This document shows positions 1 to 39,627 of a stretch of DNA of 64,000 nucleotides, one piece after another. Under the pieces are notes generated by a model. The model searched no databases. It was not told where the DNA came from and saw only the letters and a program-made list of their open reading frames with translations. A program made the position numbers and the translations under genes. Source of the stretch: a virus; the IMG/VR virus record IMGVR_UViG_3300012352_000355, positions 1-64,000 of that record. One strand, 5' to 3'. The stretch's first letter is position 1. Each line of letters starts with the position of its first letter.

Positions 1-362
1 TCTGTAAATTTTAAGTAGTTGTCTAAATAACTCTGTATGTTTTCTCTACCTACAGAGTTAGCTGAGTGTACAAAGTACTTTGGTAGCCTGACTGCATTAT
101 TCATACAGTAGTCTACTATCCACTTAGCACAATCTAAGCCTGTTTTTTCGTTTAACTCTGGATGATCTGTTAGTTCATTGCCTAAATCGTGGTCGAAGGA
201 GATAGCATAAGGCATTTCGTTATGCTTGAAGTACTTTACAAACTCATCATAACTTTTAACCCAAGTAACATCTAAGTTCTCTCCGAAAGCTAAGTTAAGC
301 CAGATTTTAAATTGCCCTTGACTAGGATCTCTTAGATCATCAAGCCACAGGACCTTTTCCAT
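1..362 (-). CDS. cyclic-phosphate-processing receiver-like domain protein (3' truncated by window edge)
   Basis: Not in ORF track. Manual translation MEKVLWLDDLRDP...WVKSYDEF...ISFDHDLG...TGLDCAKW...VHSANSVG shows the WLDD, SFDHDLG, TGxD and HSAN motifs of this phage receiver-like family. Confidence 0.8.
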   Translation of the reverse strand, partial: MEKVLWLDDLRDPSQGQFKIWLNLAFGENLDVTWVKSYDEFVKYFKHNEMPYAISFDHDLGNELTDHPELNEKTGLDCAKWIVDYCMNNAVRLPKYFVHSANSVGRENIQSYLDNYLKFT

Positions 363-564
363 TAGTCTTATACTTACGTTTGGGGTTAGTAGTAGACTTT
401 CTTCGCTTAACTACTTTCTTAGGTAACTCTTCTTCGATGTGATCATACACAATATCTCCTTCAGGCATGTTGTTAATGTTTCCTCTAAATAGAAGAAATA
501 GAATAGCCATAGAGATAGCAGATACACTGAATAAGATACAAAGACCTATAAATATATTTTCCAT
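340..564 (-). CDS. small membrane protein with basic C-tail
   Basis: N-terminal TM helix, KKVVKRRK...KRKYK tail; overlaps the start of the downstream gene. Confidence 0.75.
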   Translation of the reverse strand: MENIFIGLCILFSVSAISMAILFLLFRGNINNMPEGDIVYDHIEEELPKKVVKRRKSTTNPKRKYKTNGKGPVA

Positions 565-2844: not shown

Positions 2845-3291
2845 TTAACGGACAATGATACTGTCTCCCTGTACTTCTACAGAGGAGATTTGAACTTGCA
2901 TGATAATACCCTTAAAGTCAATGGTAAGGGTTCTTTCAGTCATAAGAGCAGGCTTGCTCTCTTCAAAAGTAATTAAAGTCTCTGCTGGAGTAATAACTGG
3001 AGTAACATCAACCTTTGAGTGACGCTTAACATTAGCTTCTACAGCAGATCTCTTCTTAGAAACTAGATTGTTTTCGATAGCATACTTACGAATGGCTCTA
3101 AGAGCCTTAAGATTCATAGAAGTAGCTTTCTCAATCTTGGTTAAGCTTTTGCCTGTAGACATCAAAGTAATAGCTAATTTGTAGTCTTCTTGGTTAACAG
3201 ACAACTTTCTATTGATTACAATAGACTTTTTTGGACGACCTCTGCCAACAAATGCTCTTACAGGGGATTCTTTTTTTAATGAAATGCTCAT
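2845..3291 (-). CDS. basic putative DNA-binding protein (paralog of 3302-3745)
   Basis: GRGRPKK AT-hook-like motif, helical HTH-like segment, C-terminal beta-strands. Confidence 0.65.
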   Translation of the reverse strand: MSISLKKESPVRAFVGRGRPKKSIVINRKLSVNQEDYKLAITLMSTGKSLTKIEKATSMNLKALRAIRKYAIENNLVSKKRSAVEANVKRHSKVDVTPVITPAETLITFEESKPALMTERTLTIDFKGIIMQVQISSVEVQGDSIIVR

Positions 3292-29455: not shown

Positions 29456-29704
29456 ATGAAACTATTAAACTTTATTGGCGGACTCTTCAAAGATGAGAAG
29501 GGTGTTGTCTCCATGAAACGATTGTGCGGATTAGCATGCACAGTTACACTATGCGCTACATTGTACGCTAACTCTTTTACTGAAGCTCACTTTGCTCCTT
29601 CTGTTCCTTTGGTGGATGCGGTTGCTTTGTTGGCTTTTGGTTGTCTAGGTTTGACTTCTGTTGAGAAAATCATGAAGAAGCCAGAAGCACCTAGCGAAGA
29701 CTAA
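29456..29704 (+). CDS. holin-like two-TM protein
   Basis: SMKRLCG motif, two TMs, GLTSVEK; directly upstream of the endolysin. Confidence 0.65.
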   Translation: MKLLNFIGGLFKDEKGVVSMKRLCGLACTVTLCATLYANSFTEAHFAPSVPLVDAVALLAFGCLGLTSVEKIMKKPEAPSED

Positions 29705-29734
29705 TTTACTATAAACTATAAACTATAAACAACT

Positions 29735-30322
29735 ATGAGCTACACAAGAGAACAAATCGAAGCGGCTATGAAAGCCAAAGGTTATAAGTACTTTGAGAAT
29801 GGAGACTTCAACGTAAACATTATCGGTGTACGTAACTCTGCTACTGGTACTAAAGTAACTAATGTATTTGATGATCACTTAACTATTTCTTACAAAGAAG
29901 GTGGTGAGTGGAAATTTAAAATTTGGCCTGCTACTACAGATCCAGGAACTAAGGGTGTTAAAGAATTCCATAACGCTGCAGGTGTTGCACGTTTGGTACC
30001 TGGTCAATACTCAGGTTCACACCATGTAGGATTGCACCAAGGTAAGTACGAAGCCCTTAAGCAAAAGGCTAATGTTAAAGTTTACCGTGATGCTAACAAA
30101 GACATGAACTATGACGAGTCCAAGATACAAGAAGGCATCTTCGGTATTAATATTCATAAAGCTGGTGCAGACTCTACCTACGTTGAAAACTGGAGCGAAG
30201 GTTGCCAAGTGTTCAAGAAGTCTGCTGACTTCGATGCATTCATGGTTATCTGTAAGAAGGCTGCGGCATTGGGTGGTAACTCTTTCACTTATACTCTTAT
30301 TGAATCTAAAGATATCAAGTAA
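29735..30322 (+). CDS. endolysin, L,D-transpeptidase-like catalytic fold
   Basis: NIIGVRN, ATTDPG, GINIH...WSEGCQ (His/Cys dyad). Confidence 0.75.
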   Translation: MSYTREQIEAAMKAKGYKYFENGDFNVNIIGVRNSATGTKVTNVFDDHLTISYKEGGEWKFKIWPATTDPGTKGVKEFHNAAGVARLVPGQYSGSHHVGLHQGKYEALKQKANVKVYRDANKDMNYDESKIQEGIFGINIHKAGADSTYVENWSEGCQVFKKSADFDAFMVICKKAAALGGNSFTYTLIESKDIK

Positions 30323-30793
30323 ATGAAAGGACTTCTAGTAAGTCTTTTTCTAATTCTCTCTATCCCCTGTTCTTCTCAAATCAATGTGATGAAGGCAGGG
30401 GATGGTTGGGATTTAAAGGTAGACTCGGCCTTAGCATTAATTGCTCAAACTGATGTCAACGCTTATACTAGAGTAATAGATGTCTGCCAAGTAATAGACT
30501 TCTGGATTAGTCCCTATTCCTCTAATACAATCTCCCAAGATGGTGGAACTATATTTATCGCTACAGGAGACATAAAAACGAATTCACTCAATAACCTAGC
30601 TTGTGTTATTGTACATGAAAGTCTTCACTTATACTACTTGTTACATCCAGTAGAACAGTCACAGGACGAAGAAGAACTTAAGTGTTATATCTACGAGTTA
30701 GACTTTATAAAAAAACTACCAACCCCAGAGCCTTGGTTACAGGCAAATGCAATTGAACAATTACATAAATTAACTAAAACAAAAACAAAATGA
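30323..30793 (+). CDS. secreted zincin-like (HExxH) protein
   Basis: Signal peptide ..CSS|Q; VIVHESLH followed by EE..CY..E. Confidence 0.7.
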   Translation: MKGLLVSLFLILSIPCSSQINVMKAGDGWDLKVDSALALIAQTDVNAYTRVIDVCQVIDFWISPYSSNTISQDGGTIFIATGDIKTNSLNNLACVIVHESLHLYYLLHPVEQSQDEEELKCYIYELDFIKKLPTPEPWLQANAIEQLHKLTKTKTK

Positions 30794-32688
30794 ATAAACT
30801 ATTTAAAGTAATCATCGGGGTGTTGACATTGTTGGTTGGCAATGCATCAGCACAATCTTCTGCCACCTCTCCAGGTACAGGTCACTGGGTTGTAATTGAC
30901 TCAGGTTATCAAGTAGCTACAAACACTGTAGGACAGACTGTAGCGCCTCTTCACTTCTACAATACCTCTACTTCTGAAAAGATCACAGGTATGCAGTTCC
31001 GTGTATTCTACGATAAGACAGCTTTTACAGCAGTTGTTCCTTCTCTTAAAATCTCTTCTACTGATCAATACTTGCAGTACGTAGATAGTAACACACAAGG
31101 TTTCTTAACTGTTACATTGGCTTACACTGGATCTAGCTCAACATTTAACTATTCTAACGGAGCTACATTTGATCTTACCTTCACGCACGCAGGTGCTGCT
31201 GTATGGAACACATTGGATTCTATTAAAACTCTTAAGGTATCAGGTGTTAAATCATTTGCAAACAAAGCTGCTACTAGCTGGGGTAACGATACTACATTGG
31301 TAGTTTACTCTTATGGTGGTCGCTTCAATCAGAAGGTATTGAGATTTGCTGCTAAGTTTAAAAACGTAACAGGTTCTGACGCTAAGAACTTGTGGGTGTC
31401 TTTGGAAAAGAAAGCTCCTTCAGGATCTTGGACTCAAGTAGAAGCTAAAGCAACTAACTCTAGTGGTGTTGTTGTATTCCGTAAATTCTTGGATACTACT
31501 TACTGGGATGTACGTATGGTTGTTAAGGGAGATACTATGACTCCTGGTAATGTATTCTCTACTGCAGATGCACAGAAGATTAATCAATCTATCTTAGGTC
31601 AATATGTTGCTTCAGGATTTGACTACTACACTATGGACGTAAACGGAACTGATGGAACTATTTCTATTGCCGATGTTTACTCTGTATACGGACGTTTGGC
31701 AGGTAGATTCTCTGCATGGCCTAATTCTAAGAAGGATGTAATGTTCTTTACAGTTGCTGAGTACAATTCAATTAACGGATCTGCTACCAACTTAACTTCT
31801 ACTTACTCTACTATTAATAACTTTAACTACACAATTGACGGTCAAGATTCTATCACTTACTACGTAGCTGTTAAAGGTGATGCTAACTCTACAGGATTTA
31901 AGATGGCTCGTTTGACTCCTATCAAAATTGTTAATCCAGCTAACGCTAAACGTTACATCATTGACGAGACTGTAGAATACGACTTCCCTGCAGAAACTAT
32001 AGAGATCAATATGCCTAAAGTAACTGTAGATGAAGGTAACTTAGTTAACGTACCAGTTAAAGTATTGACTAACGGAAAGAACTTAGGTGCACTACAATTA
32101 GACTTGCGTTATGACACTGCTTACTTAGAGTTTAAGAAAGTAGAAAACACTGAGAAGATGATGAAGTGGACTTCTTACTTGAACCCTTCTAACGGAATCA
32201 TCTCTTGGGGAGCTGCTGATTTGACTAACGAGAACATGCTTAATGACGGAGAGCAAGTATTCACTCTTCAATTCATTGCTAAGAAGCCACAAGACTCTTG
32301 GGCTACTGCAGCTTTGTGGACAGGTGCTAAATACGTAGGAGACAAAAACTCTAAAGACATGAACATTACCCCTGCTATGGGAGTAATTGAAGTACGTAGA
32401 ATCAACAAAGGAGTTGTTTCACTTAATGATTTGAATTCTATTATCACTTTTCCTAACCCTACAGAAGGTCCAGTACAAATCCAATTCAAGATCAAAGAAG
32501 ATAGTGAAGTAGACGTAGCTATCTCTGATGAGGTAGGAAGACGTGTACAAACGATTCTAAGCGAAAGAATGCCTGCAGGTAAGTACAAGTATAATACAAA
32601 CCTAGATCGTCTTCCTAATGGCTTCTATGTGCTTTCTGTAACAACTCAAAAAGAAATCTTACACTCCAAAATAATCGTACAAAAATGA
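30790..32688 (+). CDS. secreted cohesin/dockerin-like protein with T9SS C-terminal sorting domain
   Basis: SP ..ASA|Q; two cohesin-like domains (GMQFRVFYDK; VNVPVKV..GALQLDLRYDTAYLEF); DVNGTDGTISIAD dockerin-like loop; FPNP...G+Y...LPNGFYVL...KIIVQK CTD. Confidence 0.85.
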   Translation: MNKLFKVIIGVLTLLVGNASAQSSATSPGTGHWVVIDSGYQVATNTVGQTVAPLHFYNTSTSEKITGMQFRVFYDKTAFTAVVPSLKISSTDQYLQYVDSNTQGFLTVTLAYTGSSSTFNYSNGATFDLTFTHAGAAVWNTLDSIKTLKVSGVKSFANKAATSWGNDTTLVVYSYGGRFNQKVLRFAAKFKNVTGSDAKNLWVSLEKKAPSGSWTQVEAKATNSSGVVVFRKFLDTTYWDVRMVVKGDTMTPGNVFSTADAQKINQSILGQYVASGFDYYTMDVNGTDGTISIADVYSVYGRLAGRFSAWPNSKKDVMFFTVAEYNSINGSATNLTSTYSTINNFNYTIDGQDSITYYVAVKGDANSTGFKMARLTPIKIVNPANAKRYIIDETVEYDFPAETIEINMPKVTVDEGNLVNVPVKVLTNGKNLGALQLDLRYDTAYLEFKKVENTEKMMKWTSYLNPSNGIISWGAADLTNENMLNDGEQVFTLQFIAKKPQDSWATAALWTGAKYVGDKNSKDMNITPAMGVIEVRRINKGVVSLNDLNSIITFPNPTEGPVQIQFKIKEDSEVDVAISDEVGRRVQTILSERMPAGKYKYNTNLDRLPNGFYVLSVTTQKEILHSKIIVQK

Positions 32689-33035
32689 ACATTAAAAAAG
32701 CACTTGGTTTTAGCCAAGCAGAACCAGTAGTAGTAGATCCTAAGAATAGGTTCTATTATATGCTACAACAAATGCAAGCCAATCGTTGGAAAATTACAGC
32801 TATCGTATTGGGCTTGTTTACTCTAATCATTGTCGGAATCAACGCAGCAGTATTCATGGGAGCTGCTATTGGTGAAGACTGGAAAGAAATGTTGCTTATC
32901 CTTTTAGGTGCATTTGTAGGTAATCTGAACAAAGTAGTAGACTACTGGTTTAACTCAGAAGATCGTGACAAGATGTTGATCCAAAAAGTGGATGAGGAAG
33001 ACGGTGAATCATTATCAAACACAACTAATCCATAA
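32685..33035 (+). CDS. two-TM membrane protein
   Basis: Two TMs, LLGAFVGNLNKVVDYWF. Confidence 0.75.
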   Translation: MNIKKALGFSQAEPVVVDPKNRFYYMLQQMQANRWKITAIVLGLFTLIIVGINAAVFMGAAIGEDWKEMLLILLGAFVGNLNKVVDYWFNSEDRDKMLIQKVDEEDGESLSNTTNP

Positions 33036-33039
33036 TATC

Positions 33040-33360
33040 ATGTCAGAAGAACAAGAAGAAAGCGTAATGTCGGCTACTAAGAAAGCTATCATTGGCGCAG
33101 TCACCACTGCTGTAACTGCAGGAGGTGCATGGTTCGCTACTCACTTTGGTGGTGGCGAAGAACCTAAAGAAGAAGCTAAAACAGAACAGAGTGCTGCTCC
33201 TGTTATTAACTTGAATCTAGAGAACAACAACACTAACCAGCAGAAACAATCTTCAGGTGGAACTACTACTATCATCAAAGAAAGAACAGTAGAGAAACCT
33301 GCAGCTCAACCTGCTGCTCCTGCAACCAAACCACAAGAGGAGGAATCTGATCCATGGTAA
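33040..33360 (+). CDS. membrane-anchored low-complexity protein
   Basis: Start MSEEQ at 33040; AIIGAVTTAVTAGGAWF TM; Q/P/E-rich tail ending DPW. Confidence 0.75.
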   Translation: MSEEQEESVMSATKKAIIGAVTTAVTAGGAWFATHFGGGEEPKEEAKTEQSAAPVINLNLENNNTNQQKQSSGGTTTIIKERTVEKPAAQPAAPATKPQEEESDPW

Positions 33361-33950
33361 AAACCTGTAATATATGTTTTGTAGAAAAGACTTTAGATGA
33401 TTTTTATAAATCTAAGTCTGGTAGAGACGGTCTGGAGTCTTTTTGTAAATTATGCAAAAGAGAGAAGTCTAGGAAAACTTATTTAGACAACAGAGAATAT
33501 AGACTACTACAAAGCAAATCATATTACTACTCTAATCACGAAAAACAAAAGGAAGTAAAAAGTAATTGGAAGAAGAATAATCCAGACTTAAACCGAGCAA
33601 TTAATAATGCCTGGGAAAGAAATAAGAGGAAGGAAGATAAATTCTGGGCTTGTAAAAAGGCACTAAGAACAAGATTTCTAGGAGCTTTGTCTGGAAGGGT
33701 GAAATCCGACTCTACTCTAAAACTAGTGGGACTACCTTCTTGGGACACATTAAAATTCTATCTGGAAACTCTTTGGTCTGAAAATATGTGTTGGAGTAAC
33801 TATGGTTATGGCGAAGGATGTTGGGTAATAGATCATATTATCCCACTAGCCTCTGCTTCTAGTTTAGAGGAATTGGAAAAACTTCAACACTATACTAACT
33901 TACAGCCTTTGTGGTGGAGGGATAATTTAATAAAAGGAACAAGTATATGA
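33354..33950 (+). mobile_element. HNH homing endonuclease-like gene
   Basis: CxxC..CxxC N-terminus, WVIDHIIPL, HYTNLQPLW..DNLIK; overlaps both neighbours. Confidence 0.85.
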
Positions 33951-34651
33951 AGACAGTAAAAAAATGGTTTAACAAGTTCATGGCTCTTGTAGTCTTGACC
34001 TTGGCAGGTTGTGGTTCTATGAAGACTACTACCGAAGAAGATAAAGTGGAGGTGAAAGACATCTCCACTGTATCTAATTATAGTGATTCTATTAAAAAAA
34101 CAGTACAAGTGGTAAGCGTAGATATGACCAAGGTACTTGCTCTTTATCCTGCTCTTCAGGAAAAGAACGTAGGTCTTGGATTTGCAGAATCTGTTTTGGA
34201 TTATTTGGATGAAACAAACAGATTTATATTTACGGAAGAAAAATCAGAGATCAAAGAAAGAATGGTCACTCAATTCAAAGCATCAAAGAAAGGCGTATTC
34301 GATGAACCAATTGATGGGAAAGGTAAGATTAAGCCTGCTCACTACTTTGTGTATGTTACTGTGGCTGATTTTGCTGTTGATGAAGACGAGCAAGTTGATG
34401 GCCTTAAGTCAAAAGTTGTTGTCACTACCTTCATACGTTTACAAGTTCGCTTTGTGGACGCTAAGACAGGTCAGATCTATATTGGATCTGGCGAAGGAGA
34501 GTCGACTAAGACTGGTGAATCATTCTTAAAATCTTTAGATGATATGAAGTTCTCTCAAAGCACAGTAGGTAAAGCTACACGTAAATCTTTGGAGACAGCT
34601 TGTACTAATGTGATTCAAAATCTCATTAAGTCAGGTGTATTTAAAAACTAA
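33947..34651 (+). CDS. CsgG-like (curli-channel/TolB-N fold) lipoprotein
   Basis: Lipobox LAGC; LGFAESVLDYLDETNRFIFTE, LQVRFVDAKTGQIYIGSGEG, KATRKSLETA pattern. Confidence 0.75.
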   Translation: MKTVKKWFNKFMALVVLTLAGCGSMKTTTEEDKVEVKDISTVSNYSDSIKKTVQVVSVDMTKVLALYPALQEKNVGLGFAESVLDYLDETNRFIFTEEKSEIKERMVTQFKASKKGVFDEPIDGKGKIKPAHYFVYVTVADFAVDEDEQVDGLKSKVVVTTFIRLQVRFVDAKTGQIYIGSGEGESTKTGESFLKSLDDMKFSQSTVGKATRKSLETACTNVIQNLIKSGVFKN

Positions 34652-36119
34652 AATACTAATACTATTTATGATAGCTCTGTCTCTTCGGGGGCAGAGCTTT
34701 ATTTATTCGTACACAGATCCTTGTACTCAGGAGTTAAAGTTTATTAACGCAGACATGTCTAGTCCTATAGTAATTGCTTACTATGGACAGGTTAAGACTT
34801 TCTCCTACACAGAGTTACAAGATGGTACGTTTGATAATTGGATAAATAGTGTATATTTGAAGTATCAAAGTACATCACCCTGTCAAGGAGTTGGAGTAAC
34901 AACTACTACAACTACAACAACGAATACTACCCTAAACATTGTAAGCAATGTTATGAACCTAGGGGCTATTTCAAATGTTGGTAGTGTAAATGTAGATGTA
35001 GGCTCTAGCACCTCTTCAGGAACAAACATAGGAACAACAAAAACCAATAATAACAATGACAATCGAACTAGCTCTCGGAATCGTACTAGCAGTAGCTCTA
35101 GTCGTTCTGGTTCTTCTGGCAGCTCGTCAGGAGAAGGTGGACAATCAAGTGGTGGAGGAAACTCCTCAGAGACCCCAGGAACCTCAAGTGGAAACTCTCC
35201 AGACCCCAATCCAGGAAGCAGCGGAGAAGGTAATGGAGGAAGCAGTGGCTCCAGCTCCAGTTCCAGCTCCAGTAGTAGTGGAGGAAACTCCAGTGGTAGT
35301 GGAAGTAGTGGAAGTAGTAGCGGAAGCTCCCAAGGTGGAGGCGGAAGTGGTGGTAAAACCGAAGAAAAAACGGAAGTACAAACCGAGGAACCCACAGAAC
35401 AAAAAGTAGAGGAAACTAAAACTGAGACTCAAAAATCTCAGTCTTCTGGTACTGCAAAAGCTGCAGGAAAAGCTAAAGCCGAAGTTGCTAAGCCTGCGAT
35501 CTTAGTAACTGGTGATTTAGTTGGTATTCAGACTAAGTCTGATGGAGCACAAGATGCAAGAGGTACTGCCTCTTTTACTAGAGTAAAGGGAGACGGTACT
35601 TCTTCTCTTGGGTTTTCAGCCGACTACATGGTTAACGCTAGGATAGGAAATATCTCTTGCGTACGCTCTTGGATAGGAGCAAACAAAAAAGGAAACAAAC
35701 ACATTAGTGTTGTATCTGATGGACTTAGCATAATGCCTAAGTCAATGTCAAACACTCTTCTATTTGTAAGAGTTAATTCAGTTAAAAACTTTACAGCTCT
35801 CTACGGAGCAGCGGGAACTTACGGTAAACTATTTGGAGAAGAAATGATTTCTACTATTGCTATCGGAGGTTTTATGTACAAAGGTAAACTTACTAAAAGT
35901 ATAGATGCTACAATTATTGCAGCTGGTATCTACTCTCCGTACTCTAAGTATTACACAGAATCTATATTTGAGGCTAAGCCTATTGTGATTCCTTTCTTTA
36001 ACTTTACATACAGAATGACCAAGACTTTTGGCTTAGGTATTACTGGAGGAGGAACATATGTAGCAGGACAGGATATATTAAACTTTCAACTATTGATGGG
36101 AGCTAAGTTATTAATATGA
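34635..36119 (+). CDS. secreted protein with Ser/Gly linker and beta-rich (outer-membrane barrel-like) C-domain
   Basis: GTG start, SP ..LRG|Q; T/S/G-rich linker; amphipathic strands in the last ~200 aa. Confidence 0.75.
   Translation: MYLKTKILILFMIALSLRGQSFIYSYTDPCTQELKFINADMSSPIVIAYYGQVKTFSYTELQDGTFDNWINSVYLKYQSTSPCQGVGVTTTTTTTTNTTLNIVSNVMNLGAISNVGSVNVDVGSSTSSGTNIGTTKTNNNNDNRTSSRNRTSSSSSRSGSSGSSSGEGGQSSGGGNSSETPGTSSGNSPDPNPGSSGEGNGGSSGSSSSSSSSSSGGNSSGSGSSGSSSGSSQGGGGSGGKTEEKTEVQTEEPTEQKVEETKTETQKSQSSGTAKAAGKAKAEVAKPAILVTGDLVGIQTKSDGAQDARGTASFTRVKGDGTSSLGFSADYMVNARIGNISCVRSWIGANKKGNKHISVVSDGLSIMPKSMSNTLLFVRVNSVKNFTALYGAAGTYGKLFGEEMISTIAIGGFMYKGKLTKSIDATIIAAGIYSPYSKYYTESIFEAKPIVIPFFNFTYRMTKTFGLGITGGGTYVAGQDILNFQLLMGAKLLI
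35056..35409 (+). CDS. nested +1-frame membrane protein
   Basis: ATG after A-rich leader; TM, E/V/P-rich stalk, KPKKKRKYKP tail; same architecture as 340-564. Confidence 0.6.
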   Translation: MTIELALGIVLAVALVVLVLLAARQEKVDNQVVEETPQRPQEPQVETLQTPIQEAAEKVMEEAVAPAPVPAPVVVEETPVVVEVVEVVAEAPKVEAEVVVKPKKKRKYKPRNPQNKK

Positions 36120-37099
36120 GGTGGGTTATTGTTCTATTCTTCTTTGTGAACGCACTGAGTGCACAATTCACTTATTCTGGGTACTTGTATAATGCAAATG
36201 GATCTGGGGCCAACAACGTAGCTGTAAAGCTGTATAGAAGAACAAACTCTACTATATCAGGATTCACCTCTCAAAACAACTATAATGGACACTCTTACTA
36301 TCGTTCTACAGGAACAGCCAACTGGACTACAGCTAAGTCTAACTGTGCTGCTATGGGTGGGCACTTAGTAACTGTTACTAGTTCAGGAGAAAATAATTTT
36401 CTATTTAACTTGTGGCCCTCAGGATGGATAGGATTGACAGATGAAGTTACTGAGGGAACTTGGAAATGGGTTACAGGAGAGACTTACTCTTACTCAAACT
36501 GGAACTCTGGAGAACCCAATAACTCAGGTAACGAAGATTATATTCAGTTTGTAGGTAGTGGTAAATGGAACGACTTAAATAATAATAATAGCTTGGCTTA
36601 CGTAATTGAGTTTGATTACATAGTAACAACCTCTTCCTGGGCCCTTTACAAAACAATCTATACTAACTCTTCGGGTTACTATTCTATCTCTGAGACTTAC
36701 GATCCTTCTAAGGAGTACTATATACAGATAGATGCTCCTACTAGAATTCAATCCTACACTACTTCAGATATACAAGGAGTCTCCAATACTATACTAGGAA
36801 GAACTACCAGGAATGGTTTGTCTTTTCATATGTTTGATGTTAATGACGATGGAGTAATTTCTATAGCAGATAAGTATTATGTAGCTGCGAGGAAAGCTGG
36901 CTTATTCTCTAGATGGAGAACAGCTCCTGATGTAAGGATCTTTACTACTGCTCAATACAATTCAATTAAAGCAGCAACAACAAACGTAAGAGCAACTTAT
37001 CCTGGAGTCACTACTCATACAACTTCTACTTTAACTAGTGGAGGAACTTTAAATCTCTACATAATAGCTCCTGGTTATGCTGGAGCAGTAACTTACTAA
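36116..37099 (+). CDS. secreted C-type lectin / dockerin-like protein
   Basis: SP ..LSA|Q; CTL motifs GHSYY, C..GGHL, WIGLTD, EPN, WND; DVNDDGVISIAD loop. Confidence 0.88.
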   Translation: MRWVIVLFFFVNALSAQFTYSGYLYNANGSGANNVAVKLYRRTNSTISGFTSQNNYNGHSYYRSTGTANWTTAKSNCAAMGGHLVTVTSSGENNFLFNLWPSGWIGLTDEVTEGTWKWVTGETYSYSNWNSGEPNNSGNEDYIQFVGSGKWNDLNNNNSLAYVIEFDYIVTTSSWALYKTIYTNSSGYYSISETYDPSKEYYIQIDAPTRIQSYTTSDIQGVSNTILGRTTRNGLSFHMFDVNDDGVISIADKYYVAARKAGLFSRWRTAPDVRIFTTAQYNSIKAATTNVRATYPGVTTHTTSTLTSGGTLNLYIIAPGYAGAVTY

Positions 37100-37163
37100 A
37101 CCTATAGGTTGCCAAAACTGTTTTATTTTTATACTTTTGGCAGAATATAAATTATCCTAAAAC

Positions 37164-37610
37164 ATGAAAAAACTATTTATACTTTCCGCTTTAGTCACTA
37201 TGATGACTTCTCTGAGTGCTCAATGCTATAAAGTTGACACTGTAACATCAATTGCTTCTGTAACAGAAATAGGAGGAAGACCTATAATCTTTGGAGCACA
37301 AACAACTCTAGAAGAGATTGCCTCCTCAAAGTACCAATTATGTAATGAGGGCAGTCCTATTTCAGGAACAATCAAATCCATTGCTATGCCTGAAGAACTC
37401 TTAAATATCGTAGGGTTACAGTTTCTCAAGAGAGACTATATTGTAGTCACTGAGATAAACTTAAATGGAGTAACTGTTCTTGGAGAGGCTAAAAAGACTG
37501 TCTATGTTAATGCTATGTTTGTTTCTGTAGAAGGTATTCCTCATAACAGAAAAGCTTATTCTAAGGCATTGGAGAAGTCTTTCAAGAATGGGTTTGAGAA
37601 TTTGAAATAG
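37164..37610 (+). CDS. small secreted protein
   Basis: SP ..LSA|Q; own promoter TTG-N20-TACTTTTG at 37109-37139. Confidence 0.75.
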   Translation: MKKLFILSALVTMMTSLSAQCYKVDTVTSIASVTEIGGRPIIFGAQTTLEEIASSKYQLCNEGSPISGTIKSIAMPEELLNIVGLQFLKRDYIVVTEINLNGVTVLGEAKKTVYVNAMFVSVEGIPHNRKAYSKALEKSFKNGFENLK

Positions 37611-37964: not shown

Positions 37965-38237
37965 CTAGAGTCCAGCTACATCCTGAGCATGCATGTAGTC
38001 TGTCTGCTGCATAGGTTGATCATCTCCTAGAATAGATTCTAGAGCATAGTCAATATAATCGAAGAGCATTTCTTCTGTGTACTTCTTTCTATAGGTAAAA
38101 TCTTTGAATCCTTGATAAAGGGCATCCTTGAATCCACCTATGTCTCCTGCTATTTTGACCTCTTCATCCTGTAAGGCTAAAAGGAAGAACTCGAATACTT
38201 CTTCTGAGGTCGGCTTTTTAACTTTTTCCATCGACAT
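37965..38237 (-). CDS. small acidic protein
   Basis: Lone minus-strand gene with its own TATATTTG promoter (38256-38263); ATG at 38237 or 38231. Confidence 0.7.
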   Translation of the reverse strand: MSMEKVKKPTSEEVFEFFLLALQDEEVKIAGDIGGFKDALYQGFKDFTYRKKYTEEMLFDYIDYALESILGDDQPMQQTDYMHAQDVAGL

Positions 38238-38394
38238 AGCAGTAATTGTTTGATACAAATATAGGTTTAAATAAAGTTTTGTCTATAGTGTTTATCTAAT
38301 TCCCTGAGACATCTAAAATAATTATCTAGGTTACAAATTGAGTTAACACGTGTAACATTTGATATTAATTACTGGTTTAGACTTAACATTTAAC

Positions 38395-38424
38395 TTGACT
38401 TTTTTTGTTACAATCGTATATTTG
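38395..38424 (+). promoter_or_regulatory. promoter of the packaging/head operon
   Basis: TTGAC-N17-TATATTTG. Confidence 0.7.
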
Positions 38425-38448
38425 TTTAGCAAAAAACAAACCAAACCA

Positions 38449-38805
38449 ATGAAAGTAGCACGTAGATATGAAGAAGGAGTTAAGTTACATCAAGCATATA
38501 TTGATGTATTGCTTAGACTTGCAGGGTATAGATTATCAGATCTATACACTAGTATATTAGCCCATAGTTCCTACTACGGCACTTTAGACAAAGAAGTAAA
38601 AGAAAGAATCGCTGGTGAGTTTAACACATCAATTCAGGTAATCTCTAATGGAATTACCAGATTAAGAAAGATGGGCATCTTAGAAAAAAACATAGTCAAC
38701 CCAAGACTGTGTCCTACTAGCAAGCAAGGTGTTACACTCACATTGGTTCTTTCAACAGGCAACGGAGTAACTGAGAATAAGGCAGAGAGCGCAATAGCAG
38801 TATGA
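38449..38805 (+). CDS. winged-HTH DNA-binding protein
   Basis: KERIAGEFNTSIQVISNGITRLRKMGILEK; start reassigned to the ATG after the AACCAA leader. Confidence 0.7.
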   Translation: MKVARRYEEGVKLHQAYIDVLLRLAGYRLSDLYTSILAHSSYYGTLDKEVKERIAGEFNTSIQVISNGITRLRKMGILEKNIVNPRLCPTSKQGVTLTLVLSTGNGVTENKAESAIAV

Positions 38806-39344
38806 GGAAAGTAAAAGATAGGTATGAAGGTATTGAAATAAAAACTTATGCAGCTTACTCAGAAGTTGCTAAGGAAACTGGAATGACTATCGACCAAGTA
38901 AGCACTATCTACGAATGGTACTTAAAGAAGACCATAGACGAGATAAGAGATCTTCCTACTGTGAAAGTAAGAATGTCTGGCTTAGGAGTACTTGTATTTA
39001 ATCCTAACAAAGCAATCAAGATCATTGCTACTAAGATTAAGTCTGAGTATTTGATTACCCAGGAATCCAGAGAAGACTGTACAGCACTTAGAGGATATAA
39101 CAATTATTATATGCTCAAAGACTGGCTTAGGATTTTTGAAGAAAGGTACGAAAGAGGAAAGAGCAAGAAACTATACACAGACGTAGTAGTAGATTACATG
39201 GACAGAGAATTACTAAGACAAAAACAAAACCACAAAAATTTATATGAATCCTTACAAAGAGTACATGGCCCTGAGCCTGAAGGGTCTGAAGAATTTGAAC
39301 AAAGTCTTGGAGGGGGTAGCAACAAAGACAGCGAATCAATTTAA
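38802..39344 (+). CDS. HU/IHF-like protein
   Basis: SEVAKETGMTIDQVSTIY...VRMSGLGVL. Confidence 0.6.
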   Translation: MRKVKDRYEGIEIKTYAAYSEVAKETGMTIDQVSTIYEWYLKKTIDEIRDLPTVKVRMSGLGVLVFNPNKAIKIIATKIKSEYLITQESREDCTALRGYNNYYMLKDWLRIFEERYERGKSKKLYTDVVVDYMDRELLRQKQNHKNLYESLQRVHGPEPEGSEEFEQSLGGGSNKDSESI

Positions 39345-39627
39345 ACTATTGAGTAATGAAAAACAGAACGTTATCGCAGAGAGAATGGATATTTGTATCA
39401 AGTGTCCCTACAATTCAACAAACGCAGTCACTTCCCCTGAGTACCTACAACTTACGGGCGAACACTACAGCACCACAAGGACAGAACTACACTGTTCGTT
39501 TTGTGGTTGCATCTGCACCTACAAAACAGCATCCCTATCTTCAGATTGTGGAATAGAAACTTGGAATAACTCCAACCCTAACAACCCAGAAAAACACTTA
39601 GAATTATTATGGAAAAGAACAGAGTAA
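39244..39627 (+). CDS. Zn-finger protein
   Basis: CIKCP, CSFCGC, C..W motifs. Confidence 0.75.
   Translation: MNPYKEYMALSLKGLKNLNKVLEGVATKTANQFKLLSNEKQNVIAERMDICIKCPYNSTNAVTSPEYLQLTGEHYSTTRTELHCSFCGCICTYKTASLSSDCGIETWNNSNPNNPEKHLELLWKRTE

Follow-up and report, generated by a model that had tools for sequence, protein, structure and literature searches.

Background

In phage lambda, the gene Rz1 lies wholly inside Rz, on the same strand and in the +1 frame, and both products are targeted to the envelope. The alternative-frame proteins E of phiX174 (encoded inside D) and L of MS2 are short and combine a single hydrophobic helix with a chain that is otherwise charged or basic, and their composition is skewed by dual coding. 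The locus described here shares these traits with both systems. It lies in a stretch of 64,000 nucleotides (nt), positions 1 to 64,000 of IMG/VR virus record IMGVR_UViG_3300012352_000355, referred to below as the window. The phage is uncultured, and its whole record spans 111 kb and is estimated to be 94% complete. An open reading frame (ORF) at 35056-35409 is nested in the +1 frame of a longer gene, 34635..36119 (hereafter the host gene), and, as in lambda, the pair stands downstream of holin-like and endolysin-like genes. The nested ORF is very probably a genuine protein-coding gene, overprinted on the linker of the gene for an autotransporter-like protein, given that its counterpart in a sister phage is a stand-alone gene; ribosomes would most likely enter it independently, at its internal ATG. 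The relevant features are listed below, with lengths in amino acids (aa), the transmembrane (TM) helix described by its Kyte-Doolittle hydropathy (KD), and structure predictions made by AlphaFold2 (AF2).

35056-35409, plus strand: nested gene, ATG, 117 aa, stop codon TAG, +1 frame relative to the 34635..36119 host gene
34635-36119, plus strand: host gene, 494 aa, with signal peptide, N domain of ~100 aa, linker, and C-terminal barrel
about 35010-35420, plus strand: linker of ~130 aa made of S/G/T/N, part of the 34635 gene
35026-35055, plus strand: A-rich unstructured leader of the nested gene, within the host codons T-K-T-N-N-N-N
35062-35124, plus strand: predicted TM helix, residues 3-23, followed by R-Q-E-K (KD 3.0-3.3)
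35218-35259, plus strand: conserved block AAEKVMEEAVAPAP, residues 55-68, predicted helix (AF2 helix 51-63)
35353-35406, plus strand: polybasic C-terminal tail VKPKKKRKYKPRNPQNKK, residues 100-117

The initial annotation, made from the sequence alone, had described a coherent 117-aa ORF in the +1 frame with an A-rich leader, ATG, hydrophobic stretch, and basic tail, and it is present exactly as claimed. The family is represented in the genome by this single copy. The product has an E/V/A/P/Q-rich middle, ends in KPKKKRKYKPRNPQNKK, and contains no F, C, S, H, or W. According to AF2, a helix covers residues 2-35, with a predicted local distance difference test score (pLDDT) of 85-93 across the first 20 residues; outside the TM segment the model shows AAEKVMEEAVA as a short helix, the E/V/A/P spacer as disordered, and the tail at moderate confidence. 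These sequence features are real and, taken alone, carry no weight.

Free-standing homolog

Gene finders never call the nested gene, since it lies wholly inside another gene. A search of 1.84 billion cluster representatives with a profile built from the nested proteins (A1) yielded only seven called proteins; these include members of 73-99 aa with normal composition (containing F, Y, N, D, and S), of which one comes from a 34-kb contig. Scanning of viral contigs with the called family proteins yielded the 81.5-kb contig L081, which carries at 2930-3217 an ordinary gene of 95 aa homologous to the nested ORF (BLASTP E 3e-14). No ORF of at least 50 aa overlaps this gene, and the frame equivalent to that of the host gene has 9 stops there. 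L081 represents a syntenic sister phage: its upstream genes for an 82-aa TM protein and a 195-aa endolysin-like protein are 77% and 87% identical to those at 29456 and 29735 of the window, respectively, and its genes downstream match window 37965-39627 at 71-88%.

Comparison of the L081 gene with the window copy in the nested frame gives a ratio of nonsynonymous to synonymous substitution rates (dN/dS) of 0.31, with dS equal to 0.82. All 7 codon differences in the last 19 sense codons (residues 99-117) are synonymous, and the peptide is identical. The heptapeptide PKKKRKY is invariant in 13 of 13 aligned members, nested and free-standing, and the block AAEKVMEEAVAPAP, near-invariant within clade G1 of the host-gene homologs, also occurs in the free-standing homologs. 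As for codon usage, the free gene has a codon adaptation index (CAI) of 0.72, like normal genes, and the nested one 0.46; across the overlap both frames have values of 0.44-0.53, which is the off-frame level. Low CAI in both overlapping frames is the expected cost of dual coding.

Constraint across host-gene homologs

The proposal of the initial annotation that the linker is a true dual-coding region is likely to be right, judging by independent comparative evidence: purifying selection on the free-standing homolog, frozen host-synonymous sites, and the context of the start. More than 1200 homologs of the host gene were found, and 80 loci at 63-98% identity were fetched, resulting in 62 unique full genes. 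In all 62, an ATG followed by a hydrophobic stretch of the +1 frame occurs early in the linker, a region that is unalignable between clades. Shared by themselves, the ATG and hydrophobic stretch could reflect composition.

The +1-frame motif EE[ITM]HQKIK[AV]G is present in 39 of the 62 unique homologs. Within it, 8 of 11 host third positions never change, and 12 changes are counted in total versus 52.4 expected (Poisson P 2e-11), the expectation being derived from third positions of the barrel (4.76 changes per site over the tree of the 39 homologs). These host-synonymous positions are frozen because they are second positions of the nested frame. The variable sites of the motif are host first positions (Pro/Ser/Ala/Thr, Pro/Ser, and Gly/Ser alternatives, with 9, 7, 4, and 5 changes) and coincide with the +1 wobble positions of ATN, CAY, AAR, and GGN, with Y found at CAY, R at AAR, and all four bases at ATN. 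Read in the nested frame, all variation at these sites is synonymous or conservative. Both frames are under constraint, and the Pro/Ser/Ala/Thr or Gly/Ser swaps that the host linker tolerates are synonymous in the nested frame.

Regarding clade G1, which includes the window, the host third-position rate, equal to 1-2.5 changes per site elsewhere, dips to 0.5-0.8 in the TM segment, 0.33-0.5 in AAEKVMEEAVAPAP, and 0.1-0.4 in the tail. The dSN values are 0.20-0.26 in the overlap versus 0.49-0.68 in the domains; for the post-TM segment of clade G2, dNS is 0.55 (about neutral), dSN 0.20, and dNN 0.13. Matches to the family profile come from clades G1 and G2 and from lineages L071 and L076.

The initial annotation had suggested comparing homologs for a +1 frame free of stops along with a conserved TM segment and basic tail. 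The comparison finds the ATG and hydrophobic stretch in the whole set and PKKKRKY in every aligned member; in clade G2, a stop cuts the nested gene to about 50 aa. Past this truncating stop (L025:3820-3960 and its G2 equivalents), the +1 frame reopens with GTG or ATG and encodes another hydrophobic stretch plus a basic tail, with no clear constraint (dSN 0.52 versus 0.59-0.68 at neutral sites). Among proteins of 27-88 aa, none was retrieved by word index with the 50-aa form of clade G2, scans of viral and JGI metagenome contigs for the DNA of the called proteins P0126 and P0127 revealed no relative, and no relative of the small protein was found in GenBank phages. A further drop of the host third-position rate in clade G1, to 0.2-0.3 per site, is located in the N domain (~34824-34914), although the +1 frame is closed there.

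Start site

Translation starts in Bacteroidota rely on A-rich, structure-free leaders rather than on Shine-Dalgarno sequences. The 30 nt before the nested ATG are 63% A, a value that exceeds those of all 670 internal ATGs in the long genes of the window (mean 0.31) and lies inside the span covered by 40 true starts (mean 0.46). The minimum free energy of the -20..+20 region is 0.0 kcal/mol for the nested ATG, whereas internal ATGs have -5.2 and true starts -1.1. Ribosomes would start here independently, after the kind of A-rich and structure-free leader that is typical of the starts of this phage. The T of the nested ATG is a host-synonymous site and is kept in 62 of 62 homologs despite a varying host dipeptide (ND, NG, DG, DD, or DA), and the sequence round the start (aacaATGACAAT.GAACTA) is common to the free-standing gene of L081. 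As for transcription, a promoter-like string of Bacteroidota type, TTTG-N18-TATATTTG, is located at 34830-34859, inside the N-domain stretch with the lowered third-position rate and ~200 nt upstream of the nested ATG; it has 3 matches in the window versus 2.1 expected and was not used, and a sigma-70 promoter scan was uninformative.

Opposing evidence and alternative explanations

Several points weigh against 35056-35409 being a gene. Its translation in vivo is something that we infer, and free-standing copies were checked at the DNA level in one case (L081). Neither the nested protein nor its free-standing homolog could be assigned to a family with Pfam, PHROGs, NCBIfam, or the ESM Atlas, and the fold search returned no match giving a function. 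The frame-specific substitution analysis put forward in the initial annotation supports constraint in blocks only: parsimony counts over the whole ORF in clade G1 are 55, 81, and 63 changes at nested positions 1, 2, and 3, respectively, and no nested-frame periodicity appears when the whole ORF is summed. An OLGenie-like dNN/dNS ratio was rejected as an absolute test, being biased low (0.46-0.68 in non-overlapped control domains), and was used only relative to these domains. The best-constrained motif, EEIHQKIKAG, is absent from the window copy and from L016-type sequences. In clades G3 and G4 and in other lineages, the family profile does not recognise the +1 ORFs with TM-like stretches, which may be diverged copies or mere by-products, and look-alike by-products do exist in this linker. 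Finally, an ORF with a TM-like start and basic tail is expected from host-gene composition and codon usage.

This last point was quantified with a null model in which the host codons were resampled synonymously according to the usage of the phage itself (TCT 0.48, AGT 0.24, GGT 0.46). An ATG-initiated ORF of at least 100 aa arises in 52% of trials, essentially whenever Asn is encoded by AAT and not AAC. Only host codons of the form xTA or xTG can produce a +1 stop, and Val/Leu/Ile/Met/Phe together account for just two residues of the linker; with almost no Val/Leu/Ile/Met codons, stops cannot arise in it. Hydrophobicity of the +1 frame is likewise expected because the Ser, Gly, Asn, and Thr codons of the linker mostly end in T: for the best 'Met + 20-aa window', the null median KD is 1.3-2.1 versus 2.2-3.4 observed (p 0.0015-0.29 in 22 lineages). 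Since synonymous resampling yields the ORF, ATG, and TM-like start by chance, all three were dropped as evidence.

The nested ORF could on these grounds be a non-functional by-product of composition, free of stops, hydrophobic through the T-ending codons, and basic at its A-rich Lys/Thr/Glu end. An ATG with a TM-like stretch is expected under such an explanation, the minus-strand frames across the same linker are open for 82-170 codons, the second hydrophobic +1 runs of clade G2 have no similarity to the family, and the +1 frame of a remote homolog in phage immuto (described below) is open but meaningless. Composition cannot, however, account for a free-standing homolog with the above dN/dS and a normal CAI, for the frozen host-synonymous sites, or for a leader surpassing that of every internal ATG. 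The motif constraint, dN/dS, and synonymous-only differences in the tail largely refute this explanation, which we regard as improbable. The antisense ORFs mentioned, 34883-35395 (minus strand, 170 aa) and 35184-35432 (minus strand, 82 aa), are Pro/Leu/Glu-rich and are taken as compositional by-products.

It is similarly improbable that the family is real and the copy in the window is drifting or inactive. The missing EEIHQKIKAG motif would be consistent with decay, as would the moderate constraint of clade G1 outside the tail. The segment that replaces the motif, TPQRPQEPQ, resembles, however, the free-standing L081 and P0125 form (IPQKPEAPK; PQKPE/PQKPQ), so that the window copy is a normal family member along its whole length. 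This variant is common to at least 10 further contigs (L082, L085-L089, L103-L104, and P0122 among them), and the copy in question, the only one in the genome, has its ATG, leader, TM segment, AAEKVMEEAVAPAP block, and tail all intact.

A nucleic-acid element (RNA structure, internal promoter, or recombination site) in place of a second protein would fit the conservation of the tail and AAEKVMEEAVAPAP blocks at all three codon positions, but it is very hard to reconcile with free and nested tails that differ at 7 third positions while encoding an identical peptide, and with variable motif sites that follow the degeneracy of the +1 code.

Host gene and origin of the overlap

The nested gene thus remains best explained as an overprinted gene, and the host gene indicates how the overlap may have originated. 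The C-terminal part of the host protein forms a predicted barrel:

35412-36116, plus strand: 12-strand beta-barrel, C-terminal 235 residues of the host protein (AF2: 12 long strands, pLDDT 67)

The top Foldseek matches of the barrel are the translocator of the autotransporter NalP (E 4.9e-5, TM-score 0.50), FapF, and NanC/KdgM; Pfam, PHROG, and NCBIfam gave no match for the host gene. Based on the modelled fold, the host protein looks like an autotransporter-like outer-membrane protein.

A distant homolog, gp018 (474 aa), is encoded by Flavobacterium phage immuto, an unrelated cultured myovirus of 160 kb. Its N-domain motifs are those of the host protein, its linker is a long S/T/G/Q/N tract, and its barrel is 29.5% identical to that of the window. 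Its +1 frame is open for 83 codons and is hydrophilic, with no TM segment and no similarity to the family. Since the immuto homolog has a long linker and no nested gene, the Ser/Gly linker is an old trait of the host-gene family rather than the by-product that the initial annotation had considered. The region of immuto that contains gp018 (NC_055915; L111, 10527-15868) shares with the window phage a module of lectin, cohesin, 237-aa, and barrel-protein genes, which suggests a mobile host-surface module among Flavobacterium phages.

As for the history of the overlap, a tentative scenario is that the nested gene was born de novo in the pre-existing linker, was maintained by selection, and was later released as a free-standing gene in the sister phage. 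T-ending Ser/Gly/Asn codons would automatically supply a Met followed by a TM peptide, and no stop could arise; the released gene would then have returned to ordinary codon usage and composition. An origin inside the linker with later release is favoured by the immuto outgroup and by the ease with which Met-plus-TM peptides appear. Codon usage was tried as a means of telling which frame is older and proved indecisive, with the nested frame only slightly above the host frame and both near off-frame values. If the scenario is true, a complete trajectory from birth to independence is visible in extant genomes.

Nested gene product

The product is predicted to be a single-pass membrane protein of 117 aa. 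Since K and R occur only C-terminal to the TM segment and the N terminus is acidic and has just 2-4 residues, an N-out/C-in orientation is suggested. With such a topology the KPKKKRKYK tail would be cytoplasmic and available for binding to a polyanion (nucleic acid, acidic lipid, or acidic host protein). Position is the only guide to its role: the gene is part of the variable envelope/lysis-proximal cassette that closely follows the holin-like and endolysin-like genes. A possible, if doubtful, role is that of a membrane-anchored protein whose cytoplasmic polybasic tail engages a polyanionic partner, acting late along with this cassette.

The product was compared with known classes of small phage membrane proteins. 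It contains no Cys and so no lipobox, unlike an o-spanin; among the homologs, Cys is present in L081 only and not in the called proteins P0125-P0127. An i-spanin has a TM segment too, but here it is followed by a short helix and a disordered E/V/A/P stretch, the suggested orientation is C-in, and no partner o-spanin was seen. Size, TM helix, and charged tail would be compatible with a holin; the distance from the endolysin-like gene to the small gene downstream is 4.7 kb in the window and 1.6 kb in L081, and a separate 82-aa TM gene directly adjoins the endolysin-like gene. With phi29 p16.7, a small N-terminally anchored membrane protein whose C-terminal part binds nucleic acid, and with holins having charged C termini, the product shares architecture only (N-terminal TM segment, spacer, basic C terminus, and small size) and is not known to be homologous.

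A 74-aa TM protein encoded at 340-564 (minus strand), which has 86 relatives, carries an invariant N-x-K-R-K-Y-K tail past an acidic stretch. The initial annotation had connected it with the nested gene through architecture and the KRKYK motif. Shared architecture and a conserved KRKYK are confirmed, and kinship is not: only KRKYK aligns between the two (BLASTP E 0.11; hhalign probability 9%, 8 columns). From the sequences, KRKYK may be a short linear motif shared by the two families. If so, the invariant KPKKKRKYK tail would be a new short motif with a function in common with the unrelated 340-564 family.

Genomic context

The bacterial host of the phage belongs to the Bacteroidota, and Flavobacterium phages are the nearest cultured matches. 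The region 29456-30322 of the window encodes an 82-aa protein with two TM segments followed by the 195-aa protein, which matches a PHROG endolysin family (E 6e-14); together they are likely a holin-endolysin pair, which is kept in L081. Between conserved flanks (the endolysin-like gene upstream and a convergent 97-aa gene downstream), the two phages carry different cassettes. The one at 30323-37610 of the window has 7.6 kb and encodes a cohesin/T9SS protein, an HNH protein, a lipoprotein, the barrel protein, and a lectin; its equivalent in L081 (1276-3217) has 2.3 kb and encodes two DUF2589 proteins, an 86-aa protein with TM and coiled-coil segments, and, as the last gene, the small protein. 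The lipoprotein gene directly precedes the host gene:

33947-34651, plus strand: upstream lipoprotein gene with lipobox LAGC, 17-nt overlap with the start of the 34635 gene, same operon

This lipoprotein has only a weak, N-terminal, LpoB-like match, and its homolog in phage immuto, gp017, occupies the same position. The 632-aa protein at 30790-32688 contains Pfam cohesin domains (E 1e-15) and a C-terminal sorting domain of the type IX secretion system (T9SS; E 2e-9), and would be a phage-encoded T9SS cargo.

Discussion

The locus indicates that a real gene can be concealed in a long Ser/Gly linker of a phage protein, although most ORFs of this kind are artefacts. The pair of nested and free-standing genes in syntenic sister phages represents a natural experiment on the cost of dual coding. 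A host-silent change of AAT to AAC at 35055-35057 would remove the nested protein alone, so that its function is cleanly testable in a cultured relative.

Among known systems, the host gene resembles type Va autotransporters such as NalP in having a signal peptide, an N-terminal passenger, a linker, and a predicted C-terminal 12-strand barrel, the model of which has moderate confidence. It differs from them in the lack of a Pfam autotransporter match, in a passenger of only ~100 aa, and in a linker that is a long Ser/Gly stretch and not a helix.

The likeness to Rz/Rz1 spanins noted in the initial annotation holds for the gene layout and does not extend to the products. In contrast to Rz1, the nested product has a TM helix, no lipoprotein signal, and no Cys; in contrast to the inner-membrane coiled-coil protein Rz, the outer gene encodes a signal peptide and an outer-membrane barrel, is not an i-spanin, and overlaps the nested gene in a low-complexity linker. 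As for phiX174 E and MS2 L, they are single-gene lysis proteins of tiny genomes and have no sequence similarity to the nested product, whereas the nested gene belongs to a genome of ~111 kb with an endolysin-like gene of its own and to a family that also exists in free-standing form.

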